Shown: positions 33,156 through 41,210 of the stretch, one piece after another
Position numbering within the stretch: position 1 is the first letter of the stretch
Layout of the letters: every line of letters begins with the position of its first letter
Notes under the pieces: generated by a model
Seen by the model: the letters and a program-made list of their open reading frames with translations, nothing else
Databases searched by the model: none
Told to the model about the DNA's origin: nothing
Assembly: GCA_027491435.1 (NCBI GenBank)
Contig: JAOZFG010000017.1
Coordinates: forward strand, 1 to 64,000
DNA: 64,000 nt
From: Thermoproteota archaeon
GTDB lineage: Archaea; Korarchaeota; Korarchaeia; Korarchaeales; Korarchaeaceae
Direction: 5' to 3'
Translations under genes and position numbers: made by a program

Positions 33156-34820
33156 CTAGTCGAAGTCAGATTTAAACTCTCCGGGACCCCCTCCTTCCTC
33201 CTCTTCACCTTCCTTCTTTCCGCCCTTCTCCTCGTAGGGCTTAGCAGCTATTATGTCGTCGGTCTTTATTATCAATATTGCAGTCTCAGTGGCAGCCGTT
33301 ATGGCGTTCTTGACCCCTCTGTAGGTGTCAACCACGTCTAGCTTGCTCATGTCAGCCACCTTACCGTTTATAGCGTCGACGCCTACGTACGTCTGGCCGT
33401 TGGCGTGGGCGTTCCTTATCTCAACTAGGGCGTCCACTGGATCCATGCCCGAGTTTTCAGCCAGTATCCTAGGTATGCTCTCTAGAGCCTCGGCGTAAGC
33501 CTCCATAGCCAACTGCTCCTTACCCTTGACGGTGTTGGCGTAGTTCTTTAGCCTGAGGGCCAACTCGGCCTGTATGGAGCCACCTCCGTAGAAGACCTTA
33601 CCGTCCTCCACCACGTTCCTGGCCACGTAGAGGGCGTCCTTCAACCCCCTCTCGGCCTCGTCCAAGATAGTGTCAGCTCCAGCCCTGAGCAAGATCGTAA
33701 CAGCCTTCGGGTTCTTGCAGTCCTCCACGAAGATCATCCTGTCATCTCCTATCTTCCTCTCCTCAACTAGACCAGCGAAGCCCAGCTCCTCCTCAGTCAA
33801 GTCATCGAGGTTGTTGACTATCTTGGCACCAGTGGCCTTCTCAAGCCTCTGCATATCCTTCTCACTTACCCTCCTCACGGCCATTATACCGTGTTTAGCT
33901 AGGAAGTGCTGGGCTACCTCGTCTATGCCCTTCTGGCAGAACACCACGTTGGCCCCAGTTGCAGCTATCTTCTCAACCTTCTCCTTCAGTATCCGGGTCT
34001 CCTGCTCTATGAACTCCCTTAGCTCCTGGGGAGTTGATATCTGTATCTCAAGGTCTATCTCAGGCTTCTTTATCTCTAGAGACAAGTTGAGCAGCGCTAT
34101 CTTGGCGTTCTTCACGGATTTAGGCATGTCCCTGTGAACCACCTCTTTGTCTAACACGACCCCCCTTATGAACTGAGTCTCGGAGAGGCTCCCTCCCTTC
34201 TTCTTGACTATCTTTATGTTGTCTATGTCCACAACCCTCTTACCGTCCTTCTCCTCTTGAACCGCCTTAACGGCCTTGACAGCGATTTCAGCCAGCTTTT
34301 CCTTTTCAGCGCTAACAAGCTTGCTGCTCATAGCTGTAGCCGCTACCTTCTTTATCCACTCCTCATCCTCAGGGTCTACGGTGATAGCCAGTTTATCAAG
34401 CTCCCCCTGTATGAACTTAAGGGCCTTCTCAAACCCCTCAATTATTATGGTTGGGTGTATGTCCTTTTTGAGCAGGTTCTCAGCCTCGGCCAGGATTTCT
34501 CCAGCAAGGACTACGCTTGTGGTGGTTCCATCACCTACCTCCTTATCCTGAGCTTTGGCCAGGTTGACCATCAGCTTCGCAGCAGGGTGAGCGACCTCCA
34601 TCTCTTGAAGTATGGTGGCTCCGTCGTTGCTCACGGTGATATCGCCTAGAGAATCAACTATCATCTTGTCCATTCCCTTAGGCCCTAGAGTCGTCTTAAC
34701 AGCATCAGCTATGGCTCTAGCGGCCATTATGTTTATTCTCCTAGCCTCCTCACCCCTAGTCCTAGTGGTTCCCTCCTTAAGAATTAATACGGGCCTTCCA
34801 CCTATCGTCGCTAAGGCCAT
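33156..34820 (-). CDS. ths: Thermosome (group II chaperonin) subunit
   Basis: TTLGPKGMDKM, NDGATIL and GDGTTT motifs; ATG at 34820 after SD GGAGGTGA. Confidence 0.98.
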   Translation of the reverse strand: MALATIGGRPVLILKEGTTRTRGEEARRINIMAARAIADAVKTTLGPKGMDKMIVDSLGDITVSNDGATILQEMEVAHPAAKLMVNLAKAQDKEVGDGTTTSVVLAGEILAEAENLLKKDIHPTIIIEGFEKALKFIQGELDKLAITVDPEDEEWIKKVAATAMSSKLVSAEKEKLAEIAVKAVKAVQEEKDGKRVVDIDNIKIVKKKGGSLSETQFIRGVVLDKEVVHRDMPKSVKNAKIALLNLSLEIKKPEIDLEIQISTPQELREFIEQETRILKEKVEKIAATGANVVFCQKGIDEVAQHFLAKHGIMAVRRVSEKDMQRLEKATGAKIVNNLDDLTEEELGFAGLVEERKIGDDRMIFVEDCKNPKAVTILLRAGADTILDEAERGLKDALYVARNVVEDGKVFYGGGSIQAELALRLKNYANTVKGKEQLAMEAYAEALESIPRILAENSGMDPVDALVEIRNAHANGQTYVGVDAINGKVADMSKLDVVDTYRGVKNAITAATETAILIIKTDDIIAAKPYEEKGGKKEGEEEEGGGPGEFKSDFD

Positions 34821-34927
34821 TTTCTTCACCTCCTTAGTTAGCGGTACCCATCGTCGGGCAGCATGAGTTATACCACCATCGAGTTATAAAAATTAGCGGT
34901 TACATACGGCATCTGGGAGGTGGTGTC

Positions 34928-35746
34928 TTGCCGAGAATAGCAATAATTGGGGGCAGTGGGGTCTACAGGGTTATGGATGAGAGGAAATCCACCTTAGTGG
35001 ACACTCCTTTCGGGACTGTAGAGGTCTTCCTAGGGAACCTGTCAGGCGAAGAGGTGGCTTTTATACCAAGACACGGAGAAAATCATGAAATTCCTCCATT
35101 TAAGGTGAATTATAGGGGAAATCTTTATGCTTTAATGGAGCTTGGAGTTGAGAGAGTGATAGCCACCAACGCCGTAGGGTCTCTGAGGGAAGACTACCCG
35201 CCAGGAACCATACTAATACCTGACGACTTCATGGACTTCACTAAGAGGAGGGATTACACGTACTACGATGGTGGGGAGATTAAAGTCAGGGGGAGGGTAA
35301 TTAGAGGAGTTGTTCACGTCTCAATGACTCCCCATCCCTACTGTCCGGAGATAAGGGCTGCCATTAAGAGTGCTTCTGAGAAGCTGGGCATAGAGCTAGT
35401 TGACAAGGGAGTTTACTGTTGTATGGAAGGGAATCGCTTTGAGACGCCTGCAGAAATAAGGGCCTTGAGAATTTTAGGTGGAGATGTAGTAGGAATGACC
35501 GGTTGTCCGGAGGCCACGTTAGCGAGGGAACTGGAGATGTGTTATGCTTCAATAAACGTGGTCACTAATTACGCCGCGGGGGTTGGGGGAAATGTCAAGT
35601 TAACCCAAGACGAAGTGGCCGAGATATTTTCAAAGAGAATAGAAGACGTCATCGCCTTGATAGAGGAGACCATCCCTCTGATACCGAAGGAGAGGGCCTG
35701 CCCTTGCTCTAGAGCTTTAGAGGGGGCCGTCATAACCAAGAAGTGA
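34928..35746 (+). CDS. MTAP/PNP-family nucleoside phosphorylase, probably 6-oxopurine/methylthioinosine type
   Basis: GGSG, PRHG..H, AVGSL, RFETPAE and VVGMT motifs. VTNYAAG carries Asn rather than the MTAP TDYD motif. Confidence 0.9.
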   Translation: MPRIAIIGGSGVYRVMDERKSTLVDTPFGTVEVFLGNLSGEEVAFIPRHGENHEIPPFKVNYRGNLYALMELGVERVIATNAVGSLREDYPPGTILIPDDFMDFTKRRDYTYYDGGEIKVRGRVIRGVVHVSMTPHPYCPEIRAAIKSASEKLGIELVDKGVYCCMEGNRFETPAEIRALRILGGDVVGMTGCPEATLARELEMCYASINVVTNYAAGVGGNVKLTQDEVAEIFSKRIEDVIALIEETIPLIPKERACPCSRALEGAVITKK

Positions 35747-35840: not shown

Positions 35841-37046
35841 ATGAGGGTTAGGAAGGTCCTCACGCTGGATGACGTGGCCGTTGAAGGAAAGAAGGTCTTC
35901 CTTAGGGCTGATATGAACGTCCCCGTCGGAGAGGACGGGCAAATTATGAACAGTGAGAAGATTAAGCAGGCAGCAAAAACGTTAAAAGAGTTAATAGAGA
36001 GAGGGTCTGCCGTTATCGTGGGTACCCATCAAGGCAGGCCAGGTAGCAACGATTTCATCAGCACAGAAGCACATAGCGCCATACTATCAGAAATATTGGG
36101 AACTGAGGTCAATTACGTAGATGGCGTTATATCTAGAGAGGTCAGGGAGGAGATAAGTAACTTACAGGCTGGAGAGGTACTAATGTTAGAGAACCTGAGG
36201 TTTATGGCCGAGGAGAACATCGAGGGTGACCCTAAGGATTTGGTGAACACGCACTTCGTCAGGAGGCTAGCCCCTCTCTTTGACATTTACGTGAATGATG
36301 CCTTCCAGGCGGCCCATAGGAGTCAACCCTCTCTTGTGGCCTTTCCTTACATAAAACCATCGGCTGCTGGCAGGATAATGCAGAAGATGATCGCTGAAAT
36401 GGCTGAGATAGACGCTATAAAGGGCAAGAGAGTCTTCATCTTGGGAGGGGCCAAGGTATCCGACAAGCTCAAGGTAATAGTCCACGCCATCAAGAACAAC
36501 AAAGCTGCTGAAATACTGACGGGCGGACTTGTAGGCTCTCTAATGGCGTTAGCGGCTGGTCACAAGATAAATGGGGCCTTAAAGAGGTTGAGAGATTTGG
36601 ATTTGCTCCTCCCAGCTGCTAGGGACATACTAGAGAGGGCTTCAGGCAGGGTTTTATATCCAGTGGACTTCGTGGTCAAGGATGAAGAAGGTGAACTAAG
36701 AACCTACCCTGTGTACGCGATCCCTGAAGGCGGACAGATAGTGGATATAGGTCCGGGAACCATAGAAATATACAAGGAGAGACTTAAGGAGGCCGATTTA
36801 GCCGTGGCCAACGGTCCAATGGGCATATTTGAGAGGCCAGAGTCAAGGAGGGGAACTCTGGAGATTGTCAAGGCCATGGAAATGTACGCTAAGGAATCGG
36901 TTCTCTGTGGGGGTCACATGAGCACCGCTGCCAAGCTGGCAAACACAAAGGGGAGCAGGATATACACGGCCGGAGGAGCAGTTCTTTATGGGCTAGCCGG
37001 CTTGCCCCTCCCGGCTATCGATGCTTTGAGGGAAGGGGTCAGATGA
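35841..37046 (+). CDS. pgk: Phosphoglycerate kinase (divergent)
   Basis: RADMNVP, HQGRPG, LENLRF, NDAF.AAHR, GGAKVSDK, DIGP.T and NGPMGIFE motifs. Confidence 0.93.
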   Translation: MRVRKVLTLDDVAVEGKKVFLRADMNVPVGEDGQIMNSEKIKQAAKTLKELIERGSAVIVGTHQGRPGSNDFISTEAHSAILSEILGTEVNYVDGVISREVREEISNLQAGEVLMLENLRFMAEENIEGDPKDLVNTHFVRRLAPLFDIYVNDAFQAAHRSQPSLVAFPYIKPSAAGRIMQKMIAEMAEIDAIKGKRVFILGGAKVSDKLKVIVHAIKNNKAAEILTGGLVGSLMALAAGHKINGALKRLRDLDLLLPAARDILERASGRVLYPVDFVVKDEEGELRTYPVYAIPEGGQIVDIGPGTIEIYKERLKEADLAVANGPMGIFERPESRRGTLEIVKAMEMYAKESVLCGGHMSTAAKLANTKGSRIYTAGGAVLYGLAGLPLPAIDALREGVR

Positions 37047-37672
37047 TAGACGTCATGGTGATCTTCTCCCCGAGAAATCTTCCACTACTGGAAATTATCA
37101 AAGAAGATCCTTCGATCCGACCTTCTATTTTTCTAAGAGAAAAGGATAGTTTGATAAAGTTGTTTGATGAAGTTTACGATGTATACGTCGACGAGGGGGT
37201 CGTAGAATTCGTGAAGAGGAAGGGAGTTAAGGTATCTGGGCTAGCCCCCCGAGGCGCTTACTCTCTCGATCTTCATGAGGATCACCTCAGGATAAGGGGG
37301 AAATGCGTTAGAGACGTCGATCCCCTCACGGTTCTCAGGTATAGGATAGGGGATCTGGTGGACGTTAGTGACATTAATCCCTACTTTGACGGGATAATCT
37401 GGGGAAAGCTTCCCAGTCTAAGCGTAGGCGTCATTCACTTGCTGGCTTCCAGAGACAGGGTCAAGTTCTTGCCCAAGGTTGGCTTAAGTGCCATGAAGGC
37501 CCTTCTTAAGGAAGCCTGCAGCCCGAGCTTAGTTAAGCCAATTTACCTGTTGAAGGGGCATTATTTCGTTATGAGCCCCCTGTCCCTAGGACTTGAGGCG
37601 TTAGACTTAATTAAGGAATGTGAAGGTATCCCAATTAAGGCCTCTAGAAGAATTAAGTTAGTGGAGGGTTGA
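37043..37672 (+). CDS. Degenerate archaeal (type II) GAPDH-derived protein lacking NAD-binding and catalytic motifs
   Basis: Collinear by-eye similarity to archaeal GAPDH (MIDVMV, YV..GVKVSG, R..VR..DP, DV..D..P, IY, E.LD.I). Sits at the gap position after pgk. No GxGxxG and no SCNTT. Confidence 0.6.
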   Translation: MIDVMVIFSPRNLPLLEIIKEDPSIRPSIFLREKDSLIKLFDEVYDVYVDEGVVEFVKRKGVKVSGLAPRGAYSLDLHEDHLRIRGKCVRDVDPLTVLRYRIGDLVDVSDINPYFDGIIWGKLPSLSVGVIHLLASRDRVKFLPKVGLSAMKALLKEACSPSLVKPIYLLKGHYFVMSPLSLGLEALDLIKECEGIPIKASRRIKLVEG

Positions 37673-39870
37673 ACTTGAAAAGCAATTCTAAAGGCCCTTT
37701 CACGGTTAGGTCTGTTCTCCTATCTATCTTCTTCGGTTTATTCATGCTGTTCGCCCAAGGAATAATGGGGTCAGCCGCTGGCTACTTTTGGACGGGAGAA
37801 GCTGCCTTAGTCCTTATGATTGTGGGCTACTCCCTATCAACCCTAACTAGAGACCCCATGACGCCTTCGGAGCTGGGCGTCATATTCGGAGCTGTGGAAG
37901 TTATAACTGTACTCTTCATAGGATGGCAGTACTTCATCCCCTCTTGGGCTCTGGCCTTACTCTCCGATTCTATCCCTGCCGAGATCAAGCAGTGGATTCC
38001 TGACTTCTTGATCCCTAAGGACAAGGAAGCCCTCAGAACCCTCATAGTGGGCGGCAGCCTTAACCTCTCCATCTGGATAGTTCCTCTAACTTTTCTGATA
38101 GTGTTTGCCGTAGTGATATCGCTATTCGCCTACTTTAACATGATACCCTTCCACAAGTTCTACTTAGAGAAGGAGAAGCTCATATTCCCCGTAGCTACTG
38201 TAGCGTCCAGCATAGCAAAGAGGCTCAAGGAGGGAAGGGACACCAAGTGGATATGGCTTGGGGTACTGGCTGGGTTCACAATGAGCTTAATTCAGAGAGG
38301 TCATTTGCTCAACGTGTTATGGCCTGACTTTCCGGTGGCTAACCTCAACATCGACTTAACTCCCGCTTTACAGAAGGTTTTGCCAGGAGGCGCCTTCGGA
38401 ATGGACAAGGGAAGCCAAATCACGCCAGACCTAGTGGCTTGGGCTTACATAATTCCTTTGGAGGTACAGGCGTCCATGTGGATAACTGCCTTAATAGCTT
38501 ACCTGGCAATTCCGCCAATTTTAGTGAAGATAGGGCTGCTCCCCTACGAGCCCGGCGGAGACTTCCAGACGTATAGTTCAGTCGCCTCTCTGCATGGTCC
38601 TCTTCCATGGCACCATATATCAACGGGGCTCCTCGCGGCCATTGGTGTAGTTCCCCTGCTACTAGGTTATAAGTACATAAAGAAGTCGCTGGACGATTGG
38701 CAGGGACCTTTCAACAAGAGAATACTGTTTGTGGGGTGGGCTCTCACGTTTGCGGGTAGTGTGGCGTTGATCTCAGCGTTAGGACTCAGCCCAGGGGTAG
38801 CTATAGCGATCCTTATGCTACAGGTAGTTTACTGGCACGGATACGTGTGGACCATAGGCATGGGCAACTGGCTGATACCCACAGAGCTTGGAATTAGAGG
38901 ACTTGTGGACTCCCTCCTGTTTACTCCTGCGACTAGAATGTCTAGAGATGCCTTCTGGGCTGGAGCCTCAACGGCAATGGTATCCGACGTGGGATCGGCC
39001 CAGGCTACCTCCCTGATGGAGGGCTTCAGGTACTCCAGGAACATAGGGATGTCCCTCAAACACATGTTCAAGGCCCAGCTGATGGGGCTAATTATGGGAT
39101 CGGTGATAGGCGGCGTGATGCTATTGGCAGCTTACCACATCTGGGGGGCGGCTAAAGAGCCACTTAGAGCTGATAACGTGAAGTACCCGGCTACTGGCTT
39201 GCTTCAGATAACTGGACAGTTTGGAGGGTGGGAGCTCAGTTACTTCATCTTGGGATTCGCCTTTGGGGCGCTGATTTTCCTGATAAGGGGGGTCGTCCCT
39301 TGGTTAACCGTTAGCGCTGTAGGAGTCCTGTTTGGGCTAATGATACCGCATTACGCTGTGCTATACATGATGAGCACTGCTCTTAGAATTGTGGTGGATA
39401 GGACCAAGGGCAGGGAGTTCAACAGGAGGGTTATGATCCCCCTAATGGCTGGCTTCGCCGCCGGAGGTATAATAAACGTGATGGCCGCTGGCCTGGTGAA
39501 GATATTGAAGGTAATGGGCGCCGATGCCGCGGCACTTCTCTTAGGAGGCTTAATAATACTGGCCGTCTACCTGCTGTCCCTGAGAGCTTATCTTAGAGGT
39601 GAATCCAGAACTCGTGGCATTAGGGCAGTAGTTATAGAACCCTTCGGGATACTGGTAGACAAGGAGGTTGAGATAACCCCCTATGAGCTTGGAGTTGAGG
39701 GACTTGGATCCATCAAGCTATCGCCTGACGATGGCTGGACGCTGACCCCGATAGGAACTAGTGCCACTGTTAATGGTGAGCATGTTCCCGATGGATCTAG
39801 CTACAGGATTGATGGTGAGGCTGAGGTGTTAATCTGGGGAGTTAAGCTTAGCTTAAGGGTGGTAGAATGA
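37669..39870 (+). CDS. OPT-superfamily oligopeptide transporter-like protein with C-terminal FHA-like domain
   Basis: About 16-18 TM segments, EKEKLIFP motif. Soluble C-terminus W.L...T.VNG....L....V.IWGV.L. Confidence 0.72.
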   Translation: MNLKSNSKGPFTVRSVLLSIFFGLFMLFAQGIMGSAAGYFWTGEAALVLMIVGYSLSTLTRDPMTPSELGVIFGAVEVITVLFIGWQYFIPSWALALLSDSIPAEIKQWIPDFLIPKDKEALRTLIVGGSLNLSIWIVPLTFLIVFAVVISLFAYFNMIPFHKFYLEKEKLIFPVATVASSIAKRLKEGRDTKWIWLGVLAGFTMSLIQRGHLLNVLWPDFPVANLNIDLTPALQKVLPGGAFGMDKGSQITPDLVAWAYIIPLEVQASMWITALIAYLAIPPILVKIGLLPYEPGGDFQTYSSVASLHGPLPWHHISTGLLAAIGVVPLLLGYKYIKKSLDDWQGPFNKRILFVGWALTFAGSVALISALGLSPGVAIAILMLQVVYWHGYVWTIGMGNWLIPTELGIRGLVDSLLFTPATRMSRDAFWAGASTAMVSDVGSAQATSLMEGFRYSRNIGMSLKHMFKAQLMGLIMGSVIGGVMLLAAYHIWGAAKEPLRADNVKYPATGLLQITGQFGGWELSYFILGFAFGALIFLIRGVVPWLTVSAVGVLFGLMIPHYAVLYMMSTALRIVVDRTKGREFNRRVMIPLMAGFAAGGIINVMAAGLVKILKVMGADAAALLLGGLIILAVYLLSLRAYLRGESRTRGIRAVVIEPFGILVDKEVEITPYELGVEGLGSIKLSPDDGWTLTPIGTSATVNGEHVPDGSSYRIDGEAEVLIWGVKLSLRVVE

Positions 39871-41210
39871 GCCTAATATTCACGCCCTTGGGAATTAGAG
39901 GGGTCTTCGGTGAAAGCCTAACCGTCGGTGACGTGTTGAAGCTATCTAACATATTCGGAGACCATTTAGGCGAGGGATCTACCGTAGTGGTGGGCAGGGA
40001 TACCAGGGACAGCGGACCGGCTGTAGAGAAGGCCGTCGTATCGGGACTGCTATCCGCTGGAGTTCACGTGATAAACTTGGGAGTGGCTCCCACCCCCATG
40101 ATAGAGTGGGCGGTGGACAGGTTAGAGGCTGATGGAGGTGTGATAATATCGGCAAGCCATAACCCGCCTGAGTGGAACGCTTTGAAACTGGTAGGGGAGA
40201 GAGGGGTCCTGCTCCACCCAGATGAGATGGAGGCCCTCAAGGAGAAGTTCTCTAAGGGGGAGCCCAAGACCGTACCTTGGAACAAGGTCGGATCGTACAG
40301 GGAAGTCAACCTAGTAGACGAGTACATAAGTGAGATAGAGTCTTTAGTAGACGGAGATCGGATAAGAGATGCTGGCTTTAAGGTAGTGTTGGACCTTAAC
40401 GGAGGGGCTGGGGCTATAGTTACCCCCTACCTGCTTCATAGGCTAGGTGTGAAGGTGATATCTCTCAACTCCGCCCCGGGAATATTTGTGAGGGAGATGG
40501 AACCCAGGCCAGACACTCTGGGCGACTTGGCCTCCACTGTAAAGGCCGTTAGGGCGGATGTAGGCTTTGCCCACGATACTGACGCTGATAGGTTAACCCT
40601 AGTAACCGAGTGGGGGGAGATCCTGACTGAAGACATAACTCTGGCTTTGGTTGTGGACTACCTACTTCAGAAGGAGGGGGGTGGCTCCTTGGTAGTAAAC
40701 GTGGCCTCATCTAAGATGTTTGACGACATCGCATCTAGCAGAGGCGCCACTGTTTACAGAACCCCCGTGGGAGAAGCCTACGTAGCTCATAAGATGTTAG
40801 AGGTGAATGCCACCGTAGGGGGGGAAGGAAGCTGTGGCGGCGTGATCTACCCCAAGTTCCATGTAGGGAGGGATGGGCCTTTAGCTGCAGCCATAATACT
40901 GGAAAGGATGTCCGTTGAGGGAAAAACGCTTTCACAGCTGGTGGATGAGCTCCCCAAATACTACATGAGAAGGGAGAGCATTCCAGCGAGGGTTAACTGG
41001 GACGAAGTTAGTGAGAGGCTCATCAAGTTCGCTGAGAGTAGAGGTATGAAGGTAAGCACGCTGGACGGGGTCAGAATGGATACAGATGACCTTTGGGCCT
41101 TGATAAGGCCATCTAAGACGGAATTTAAGGTAAGGTTCGTCGTGGAAGGCAGGGATAAGGGTGAAGTGGACGGCCTGTTAGATGAGCTGATGAAGCTCGT
41201 CATGTCCTAG
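39867..41210 (+). CDS. Phosphohexomutase (phosphoglucosamine mutase or PMM/PGM)
   Basis: GIRG, GRDTR.SG, SASHNPP, HDTDADR, GGEGS and IRPSKTE motifs. Confidence 0.95.
   Translation: MSLIFTPLGIRGVFGESLTVGDVLKLSNIFGDHLGEGSTVVVGRDTRDSGPAVEKAVVSGLLSAGVHVINLGVAPTPMIEWAVDRLEADGGVIISASHNPPEWNALKLVGERGVLLHPDEMEALKEKFSKGEPKTVPWNKVGSYREVNLVDEYISEIESLVDGDRIRDAGFKVVLDLNGGAGAIVTPYLLHRLGVKVISLNSAPGIFVREMEPRPDTLGDLASTVKAVRADVGFAHDTDADRLTLVTEWGEILTEDITLALVVDYLLQKEGGGSLVVNVASSKMFDDIASSRGATVYRTPVGEAYVAHKMLEVNATVGGEGSCGGVIYPKFHVGRDGPLAAAIILERMSVEGKTLSQLVDELPKYYMRRESIPARVNWDEVSERLIKFAESRGMKVSTLDGVRMDTDDLWALIRPSKTEFKVRFVVEGRDKGEVDGLLDELMKLVMS

Follow-up and report, generated by a model that had tools for sequence, protein, structure and literature searches.

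A putative GAPDH-derived pseudoenzyme encoded behind phosphoglycerate kinase in Candidatus Korarchaeum

The window analysed here, a 64-kb stretch of korarchaeal DNA, contains directly after its phosphoglycerate kinase (PGK) gene, pgk, an open reading frame (ORF) at 37043-37672 on the forward strand, the 209-aa product of which is named mini-GAPDH. It is proposed that mini-GAPDH very probably descends from the archaeal type II glyceraldehyde-3-phosphate dehydrogenase (GAPDH). The link is transitive: the family of 209-aa proteins matches a 251-aa family of the same genus, the 251-aa family matches GAPDH, and all of them occupy the same slot after pgk; the predicted structure points the same way. 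Judged by its residues, mini-GAPDH is a homologue of an active enzyme without the catalytic and cofactor-binding residues. Because it fails the model score, the NAD-binding loop, the catalytic cysteine and the length of type II GAPDH while sharing its fold and ancestry, the fitting label for it is 'GAPDH-derived pseudoenzyme' and not 'GAPDH'. On balance we favour the view that it is a folded, non-catalytic, shrunken descendant of the native type II gap gene in which a binding role has been kept. The assignment draws on the ORF itself, its relatives, hhalign comparisons, AlphaFold2 (AF2) models, Foldseek and VIA-align. The initial annotation had described an intact ORF overlapping the pgk stop codon, and direct reading confirms it: the 209 codons include zero internal stops, and the ATGA at 37043-37046 (+) joins the mini-GAPDH start (ATG, 37043-37045) to the pgk stop (TGA, 37044-37046).

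Sequence and structural links to type II GAPDH

Mini-GAPDH has three relatives only in the databases, namely P0002 (74% identity, 209 aa), P0003 (65-66%, 209 aa) and P0004 (41-42%, 217 aa), and a protein search in the genomes of 40 relatives returned nothing outside the window's own genome. The orthologues of 250-254 aa, here called the 251-aa family, were located by synteny, that is, by the slot after pgk. An ORF of this size directly follows pgk in 18/18 same-genus pgk loci from other species, the genus label of the database proteins being Candidatus Korarchaeum. The remaining two genomes of the genus show the same weak match to TIGR01546, the model of type II GAPDH, in open frames of 252 and 259 aa; an intact orthologue of mini-GAPDH is present in all 20 other genomes of the genus. 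In the databases the 251-aa proteins are annotated as 'hypothetical protein' with no Pfam domain, a family name is given in none of the sources covered, and they score 17-28 bits against TIGR01546, for which the cut-off is 232.9.

The two truncated families are connected by hhalign (94.5%, E 7.7e-8, residues 1-114), and the C-terminal motif of the 209 family lines up with the 251-aa family in joint alignments. A profile of the 251-aa family built from 13 proteins matches the type II GAPDH structure 1b7g first in the PDB (E 1.7e-14), followed by 1cf2, 2czc and 2yyy; profile positions 1-88 fall on residues 1-89 of 1b7g and positions 136-253 on residues 219-339. Compared by hhalign with ten full-length GAPDHs from other Korarchaeota, the family aligns over 248 columns (99.0%, E 4e-18). 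A protein atlas gave no usable match for mini-GAPDH; one 251-aa member falls closest to clusters of type II GAPDH (scores of 0.83-0.87), which we take as a lead only. The collinearity with type II GAPDH that the initial annotation read by eye is thus borne out through the 251-aa family and the structure, and not from the single sequence. Some of its pairings have no match in the alignment, for example that of IRGKCVRDVDP with the VRRAAD strand, and the GAPDH strings it had quoted agree with segments of 1b7g except for a one-letter slip at the N-terminus.

The AF2 model of mini-GAPDH, computed from a 28-sequence alignment that included the 251-aa family, has a predicted local distance difference test score (pLDDT) of 82.2 and a predicted template modelling score (pTM) of 0.77, and its residues 2-60 form a strand-helix-strand-helix-strand-helix succession. 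A Foldseek comparison with GAPDH had been suggested as a check, and in it archaeal type II structures come out on top of the list for the predicted model. The first three hits are 2czc, 1cf2 and 1b7g, and archaeal GAPDHs take ranks 1-3, 5 and 7 (2yyy being rank 7) with a probability of 0.99-1.00, TMq of 0.57-0.64 and E of 1e-3 to 1e-2. By VIA-align the top four are 2czc, 1b7g, 1cf2 and 2yyy (Z 12.1-12.3, root-mean-square deviation 3.4-3.5, 200-202 of the 209 residues aligned), and other structures score lower, with Z 8.4 for type I GAPDH and Z 6.9 for ArgC. The 251-aa form, modelled from 24 sequences, reaches pLDDT 93.5 and pTM 0.90; Foldseek places 1b7g first for it (E 3.3e-15, TMq 0.79), other archaeal GAPDHs next and type I GAPDHs at about 1e-6. 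On these models mini-GAPDH has the two-domain fold of GAPDH.

Lost sites and a probable replacement of GAPDH in the genus

Seven full-length GAPDHs of sister genera, six 251-aa proteins and four 209-aa proteins were aligned with E-INS-i. In the column of the glycine-rich loop, GYGTIG in the sister genera, the 209 family has FSPR, FSPN, FSPE or FSTV and the 251 family has GHDPY, which upholds the earlier statement that the NAD-binding loop is gone. What remains at the N-terminus is the first half of the NAD-binding (Rossmann) domain without this loop, recognized from alignment and model at residues 1-92 (37043-37318, +). The catalytic cysteine column of SCNTT is Cys in 7/7 full-length sister GAPDHs and Pro in 3/4 of the 209-type and 5/6 of the 251-type proteins. 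In mini-GAPDH this is P94, encoded by CCC at 37322-37324 (+), the codon having been read directly. Ahead of the cysteine position about 33-38 residues are deleted, and the helix following it is retained in both truncated families; the S-loop and PSHH region is cut to CCP in the 251 family and is gone in the 209 family, about 26 more residues are missing, with further deletions in the 209 family. Altogether mini-GAPDH is about 130 residues shorter than the 339-345 aa enzymes, and about 90-130 residues are deleted across the Korarchaeum forms. The initial annotation, which had reported roughly 130 residues removed together with the SCNTT and PSHH segments, was therefore right about the total and about PSHH; at SCNTT the cysteine column has become proline and the following helix is kept. 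Residues 180-200 align to PE.ID..RE of the 251 family and to PENIDAIRA of the full-length enzymes. Because the change from Cys to Pro and the deletions are common to both forms, the 209- and 251-aa proteins would go back to a single truncated ancestor. With these residues missing, it is highly probable that mini-GAPDH has no GAPDH activity.

The distribution of the two GAPDH types suggests, at the level of gene content, a xenologous replacement of the archaeal enzyme. Type II GAPDH (TIGR01546) scores over the cut-off in 0/21 genomes of the genus Korarchaeum (g1) and in 14/15 genomes of its sister genera (g2-g5), whereas type I GAPDH (TIGR01534) is found in 19/21 genomes of Korarchaeum, the two misses being 63% and 70% complete, and in 0/15 of the sister genera. 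Type I GAPDH is also present in 2/2 genomes of a more distant genus, g7. It had been asked whether a full-length gap exists elsewhere in the window's genome: one does, intact-looking and of the bacterial type (type I). This sole intact GAPDH is a 338-aa protein at G000:C43:65062-66033 (-), locus L049:1471-2487, which keeps INGFGRIGR, SNASCTTN and WYDNEWGY. On either side of its gene lie a class I tRNA-synthetase fragment and an AAA ATPase.

In genera g2, g3 and g5 an intact type II gap of 339-345 aa, with GYGTIG, SCNTT and PSHH or SHH, stands directly after pgk, and in g5 (loci L042 and L044) a homologue of the window's phosphoglucomutase/phosphomannomutase gene, pgm, stands directly after the full-length gap. 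Since the sister genera carry an intact gap after pgk, followed by pgm in g5, the ancestral operon as reconstructed from these gene orders is pgk-gap-pgm. One full-length type II GAPDH match in a sister genus, at G044:C84:3812-4813 (+), includes four TAG stops and one TAA stop, and may represent a broken gene, an assembly problem or recoding. For the kinase itself, PGKs from other orders, classes and families of the same phylum (L027-L033, G025-G031) are 28-34% identical to the window PGK and those of archaea from other phyla (L024-L026, G032-G034) are 37-40% identical, from which there seem to be two different PGK lineages within the phylum.

We propose the following history. Catalysis would have passed to a bacterial-type (type I) GAPDH in the ancestor of Candidatus Korarchaeum. 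The old gap would have lost its NAD-binding loop, its catalytic cysteine (replaced by proline) and the second Rossmann half; with the S-loop and some of the catalytic domain also gone, about 251 aa would have been left. The lineage of the window would have lost about 42 more residues to reach 209 aa, and a membrane gene would have come to lie where it now sits, between the shrunken gap and pgm. Mini-GAPDH would be made together with PGK by coupled translation and would act by binding, not by chemistry. Most likely mini-GAPDH keeps up something that the ancestral GAPDH did in the triose-phosphate module besides catalysis, as a moonlighting or structural protein, its partner being PGK or the type I GAPDH; alternatively it may serve the co-transcribed membrane protein. 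Any one named partner is at best a tentative guess, and so is the role that the initial annotation put forward, that of a scaffold or regulator of PGK or of the downstream transporter. Complex prediction for PGK (with a 16-row alignment) and mini-GAPDH gave a score of 0.00 in two runs without controls, a result that weighs neither for nor against binding. Binding of nucleic acid by charge was considered and rejected, the predicted isoelectric points (pI 4.95-8.67 in the 209 family, 5.1-6.0 in the 251 family) giving no consistent basic character.

Selection and competing explanations

The 251-aa family is under strong purifying selection and is not an ordinary pseudogene. The ratio of nonsynonymous to synonymous substitution rates (dN/dS) was calculated from codon alignments by the method of Nei and Gojobori (NG86) for 16 loci, L022 and L023 being left out because their pgk is cut by a contig end. 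In 21 pairs with pgk dS <1.3 it is 0.046-0.149 for the 251-aa family and 0.007-0.065 for pgk. The 251-aa ORFs are intact in 16/16 loci, and 24 columns are invariant among 24 proteins. Together with the intact orthologues throughout the genus, these values bear out the earlier judgement that the gene is not in fresh decay; the dN/dS check proposed at that time is answered for the 251-aa orthologues, where the ratio is low, and the evidence on the 209-aa subfamily is at the protein level only. The 251-aa family also keeps GHDPY, C51-S52-x-S54, C131/C132-P133 and C177, which have no counterpart in GAPDH or mini-GAPDH.

Protein-level evidence indicates that the 209-aa form, too, is probably a selected, functional protein. 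Its most conserved block, residues 180-200 (37580-37642, +), corresponds by homology to the PENIDAIR helix motif, the C-terminal motif best conserved in type II GAPDH; the four 209-type proteins are identical in 18 of its 21 columns, a level reached by only 1 in 20000 shuffles. The three relatives, down to 41-42% identity, are intact at 209-217 aa, and the family has its own invariant cysteines, C88 and C193. Metagenome and genome contigs scanned with the 209-family alignment yielded no locus encoding P0002-P0004; the profile of the family gave weak, unrelated rows only against the PDB. In the PGK tree the genome of the window is a separate deep lineage, forming an unresolved three-way split with two clades that both have the 251-aa form.

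Several observations weigh against this interpretation. As a single sequence, mini-GAPDH has no GAPDH match in Pfam, NCBIfam or a phmmer search of all PDB chains (its sole Pfam line, SSRP1 PH, is sub-threshold at E 0.0073 and was taken as chance), TIGR01546 finds no match in the whole genome of the window (99.46% complete), and the profile of the four 209-type proteins, set against full-length korarchaeal GAPDH, aligns over 39 columns at a probability of only 17%. The AF2 alignment contained the 251-aa family, so that the fold match and the sequence link are not independent, and the other four AF2 models of mini-GAPDH have pLDDT of only 69-73. Between the two deep clades of the 251-aa family dN/dS looks higher, at 0.13-0.46, where dS is saturated. 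P0002-P0004 are database proteins and thus intact ORFs by construction, among which broken copies are invisible. The conserved C-terminal block is located 25-90 nt upstream of the gene for the membrane protein, a member of DUF6785, and could partly be a signal at the DNA level. A look-up of RNA and DNA sequencing runs returned none for the locus, and both the production of mini-GAPDH and its partner are predictions. Furthermore, the 209 form is 21-26% identical to the 251 family, as against 73-80% for pgk, and has lost Q23, D25, the C51/S52 pair, the CCP motif and C177, which are invariant or nearly so in the 251-aa family; these losses fit relaxed constraint or a changed function in the lineage of the window.

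Low identity and lost invariant residues would be expected if the window copy were a late-stage decaying relic of a protein that is functional elsewhere in its 251-aa form, its frame still open by recent history or operon position. The loss of a further 42 or so residues, the lower confidence of the model (pLDDT 82 against 93.5) and the absence of the 209 type from the 20 other species-representative genomes of the genus fit such decay as well. Three more proteins keep both the frame and a length of 209-217 aa, however, the conservation is uneven in a way not expected under uniform decay, as seen in block 180-200, and the model is still compact enough for nearly all of its residues to superpose on GAPDH; we regard this explanation as unlikely. 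A different possibility is a translational relay: the ORF would be retained just so that ribosomes passing through it reach the DUF6785 gene and pgm, the protein itself being unselected. The 4-nt overlaps at all three junctions in the window, and the short spacers or overlaps at the corresponding operon junctions in relatives, agree with a relay, which nevertheless predicts dN/dS near 1 and does not need 209-254 codons. Given the low dN/dS, the invariant columns and intact ORFs of the 251-aa family, an ordinary pseudogene and a relay-only frame are both rejected for that family, and the very confident globular fold predicted by AF2 for the 251-aa form speaks against a relay too; for the window copy we hold a relay to be very improbable.

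Selection on the protein could also reflect a new activity, mini-GAPDH being still an enzyme or a small-molecule binder that uses the remnant interdomain cleft, for instance as a sensor of triose phosphate or 3-phosphoglycerate or with a metal or thiol function. The genes do lie in a sugar-phosphate operon, the 251-aa family keeps polar and cysteine residues that are not simply structural (GHDPY, C51-S52-x-S54, C132-P133 and C177), and the 209 family has invariant C88 and C193. Yet the conserved Cys and His residues of the 251-aa family are not common to the 209-aa family, so that no shared active site is evident, the glycine-rich loop, catalytic Cys, PSHH segment and S-loop are all absent, and no library family or solved structure beyond GAPDH-type dehydrogenases matched well, which makes such an activity quite improbable. 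Somewhat less doubtful, and still decidedly unlikely, is a new family re-purposed at the insertion of the DUF6785/OPT-like gene, in which mini-GAPDH would be a cytoplasmic partner of the membrane protein, such as a sensor or gate tying uptake to the triose-phosphate pool. The relic and the DUF6785 gene are always adjacent, in 21/21 genomes of the genus, and the sister genera are without both; moreover, in the window's lineage, where the relic is down to 209 aa, the membrane protein has about 90 additional C-terminal residues. As DUF6785 genes outside the genus have no such neighbour, the pairing would be a genus-specific invention. Weighed against these alternatives, a kept binding role of a shrunken type II GAPDH is the reading we retain.

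Operon context, related systems and significance

In the window, pgk (35841-37046, +; 401 aa, Pfam PGK E 6.7e-101), whose product is 73-80% identical to the PGKs of 18 same-genus genomes, is followed by mini-GAPDH, by a gene for a 733-aa DUF6785/OPT-like polytopic membrane protein (37669-39870, +; Pfam DUF6785 E 6.5e-19, OPT E 1.3e-07) and by pgm for a 447-aa protein (39867-41210, +; Pfam PGM_PMM domains I-IV). The TTG start of the DUF6785 gene at 37669 overlaps the mini-GAPDH stop, and the ATG of pgm overlaps the stop of the DUF6785 gene. All three junctions are 4-nt start-stop overlaps, and the arrangement suggests one tightly coupled four-gene operon. Upstream are an MTA-phosphorylase-like gene at 34928-35746, 95 nt from pgk, and a divergent thermosome subunit at 33156-34829 (-). 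The ATGA junction recurs in 15 of the 16 same-genus loci examined, the exception being L017, where ATG comes straight after a TAG stop, and the pgk-gap junctions of the sister genera are overlapping or near-abutting. The ATGA coupling is inherited from the ancestral pgk-gap operon and therefore provides no evidence for a new role directed at PGK.

The DUF6785 gene is present in 21/21 genomes of Korarchaeum (the window genome and 20/20 others), in 0/15 of the sister genera, and also in part of the more distant genera (g6, g7 and g8). The additional C-terminal residues of the window protein (approximately 645-733, encoded at 39601-39867) have no Pfam family, and the matches of its relatives stop at query residues 604-659; a weak paralogous stretch, with 33% identity, occurs at G000:C5:114601-114870. 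A generic upstream partner of DUF6785, looked for at DUF6785 genes of other Korarchaeota, was rejected, since the ORF of 212 aa that precedes the gene in L059 shows no relationship (hhalign 0.2%) and L060 has no candidate. A g7 homologue at G027:C57:13375-15290 (+), L062, includes four internal stops (two TGA, one TAG and one TAA) and lies about 7 kb from a type I GAPDH gene that adjoins a PNP/MTAP-like gene and ribosomal L3-L4-L2 genes.

Among known proteins the closest is type II GAPDH itself (1b7g, 1cf2, 2czc, 2yyy; TIGR01546), with which mini-GAPDH shares ancestry, the predicted two-domain fold and the C-terminal helix motif, and, in the sister Korarchaeota, the operon slot directly after pgk. 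It differs in having 209 instead of 333-345 aa, no glycine-rich NAD(P) loop, Pro for the catalytic Cys and deletions of the PSHH segment, the S-loop and half of the Rossmann domain, and it scores nothing against TIGR01546, Gp_dh_N or Gp_dh_C. The 250-254 aa Korarchaeum family (P0006-P0027) likewise has pgk before it and the DUF6785 gene after it, with the ATGA overlap, and like mini-GAPDH it has lost the NAD loop, changed Cys to Pro and undergone the main deletions; mini-GAPDH is about 42 residues shorter and, in addition to its low identity, lacks the conserved Cys and His residues of that family. A precedent is TbGAPDHL, a flagellar GAPDH-like protein of Trypanosoma brucei, which is judged catalytically inactive yet retained and occurs alongside a degenerate PGK-like protein; its discussed origins are a pathway since lost, of which it would be a relic, or degeneration of a moonlighting protein (PMC4106842). 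TbGAPDHL is eukaryotic and was localized experimentally to the paraflagellar rod (PMC4106842), whereas the korarchaeal relic stems from type II GAPDH of archaea, has been shortened by 25-40% and lies in a pgk operon. Vertebrate ALDH16 pseudoenzymes are ALDH-type proteins without catalytic residues for which protein-protein interaction is proposed and the function is unknown (PMC12041015); they belong to an unrelated superfamily (ALDH, not GAPDH), are eukaryotic and are not similarly truncated. A full-text literature search found no description of a truncated korarchaeal GAPDH, with supplementary tables, which might list the family, outside the search; a term search of a 2026 Korarchaeota genomics paper for GAPDH, glyceraldehyde and phosphoglycerate kinase gave zero occurrences.

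The locus captures an enzyme replacement with its aftermath visible: a bacterial-type GAPDH appears to have displaced the native one genus-wide, and the old gap, cut to 60-75% of its length and deprived of its cofactor site and catalytic residue, then came under strong purifying selection. It would offer a clean natural experiment on the origin of pseudoenzymes and on the non-catalytic roles of a glycolytic enzyme in archaea, for which the 251-aa form, owing to the very high confidence of its predicted fold, should be tractable in structure and binding studies. Naming the family improves the annotation of Korarchaeum and avoids wrong calls on the gluconeogenic route, because it is the type I enzyme that serves these genomes as their working GAPDH.

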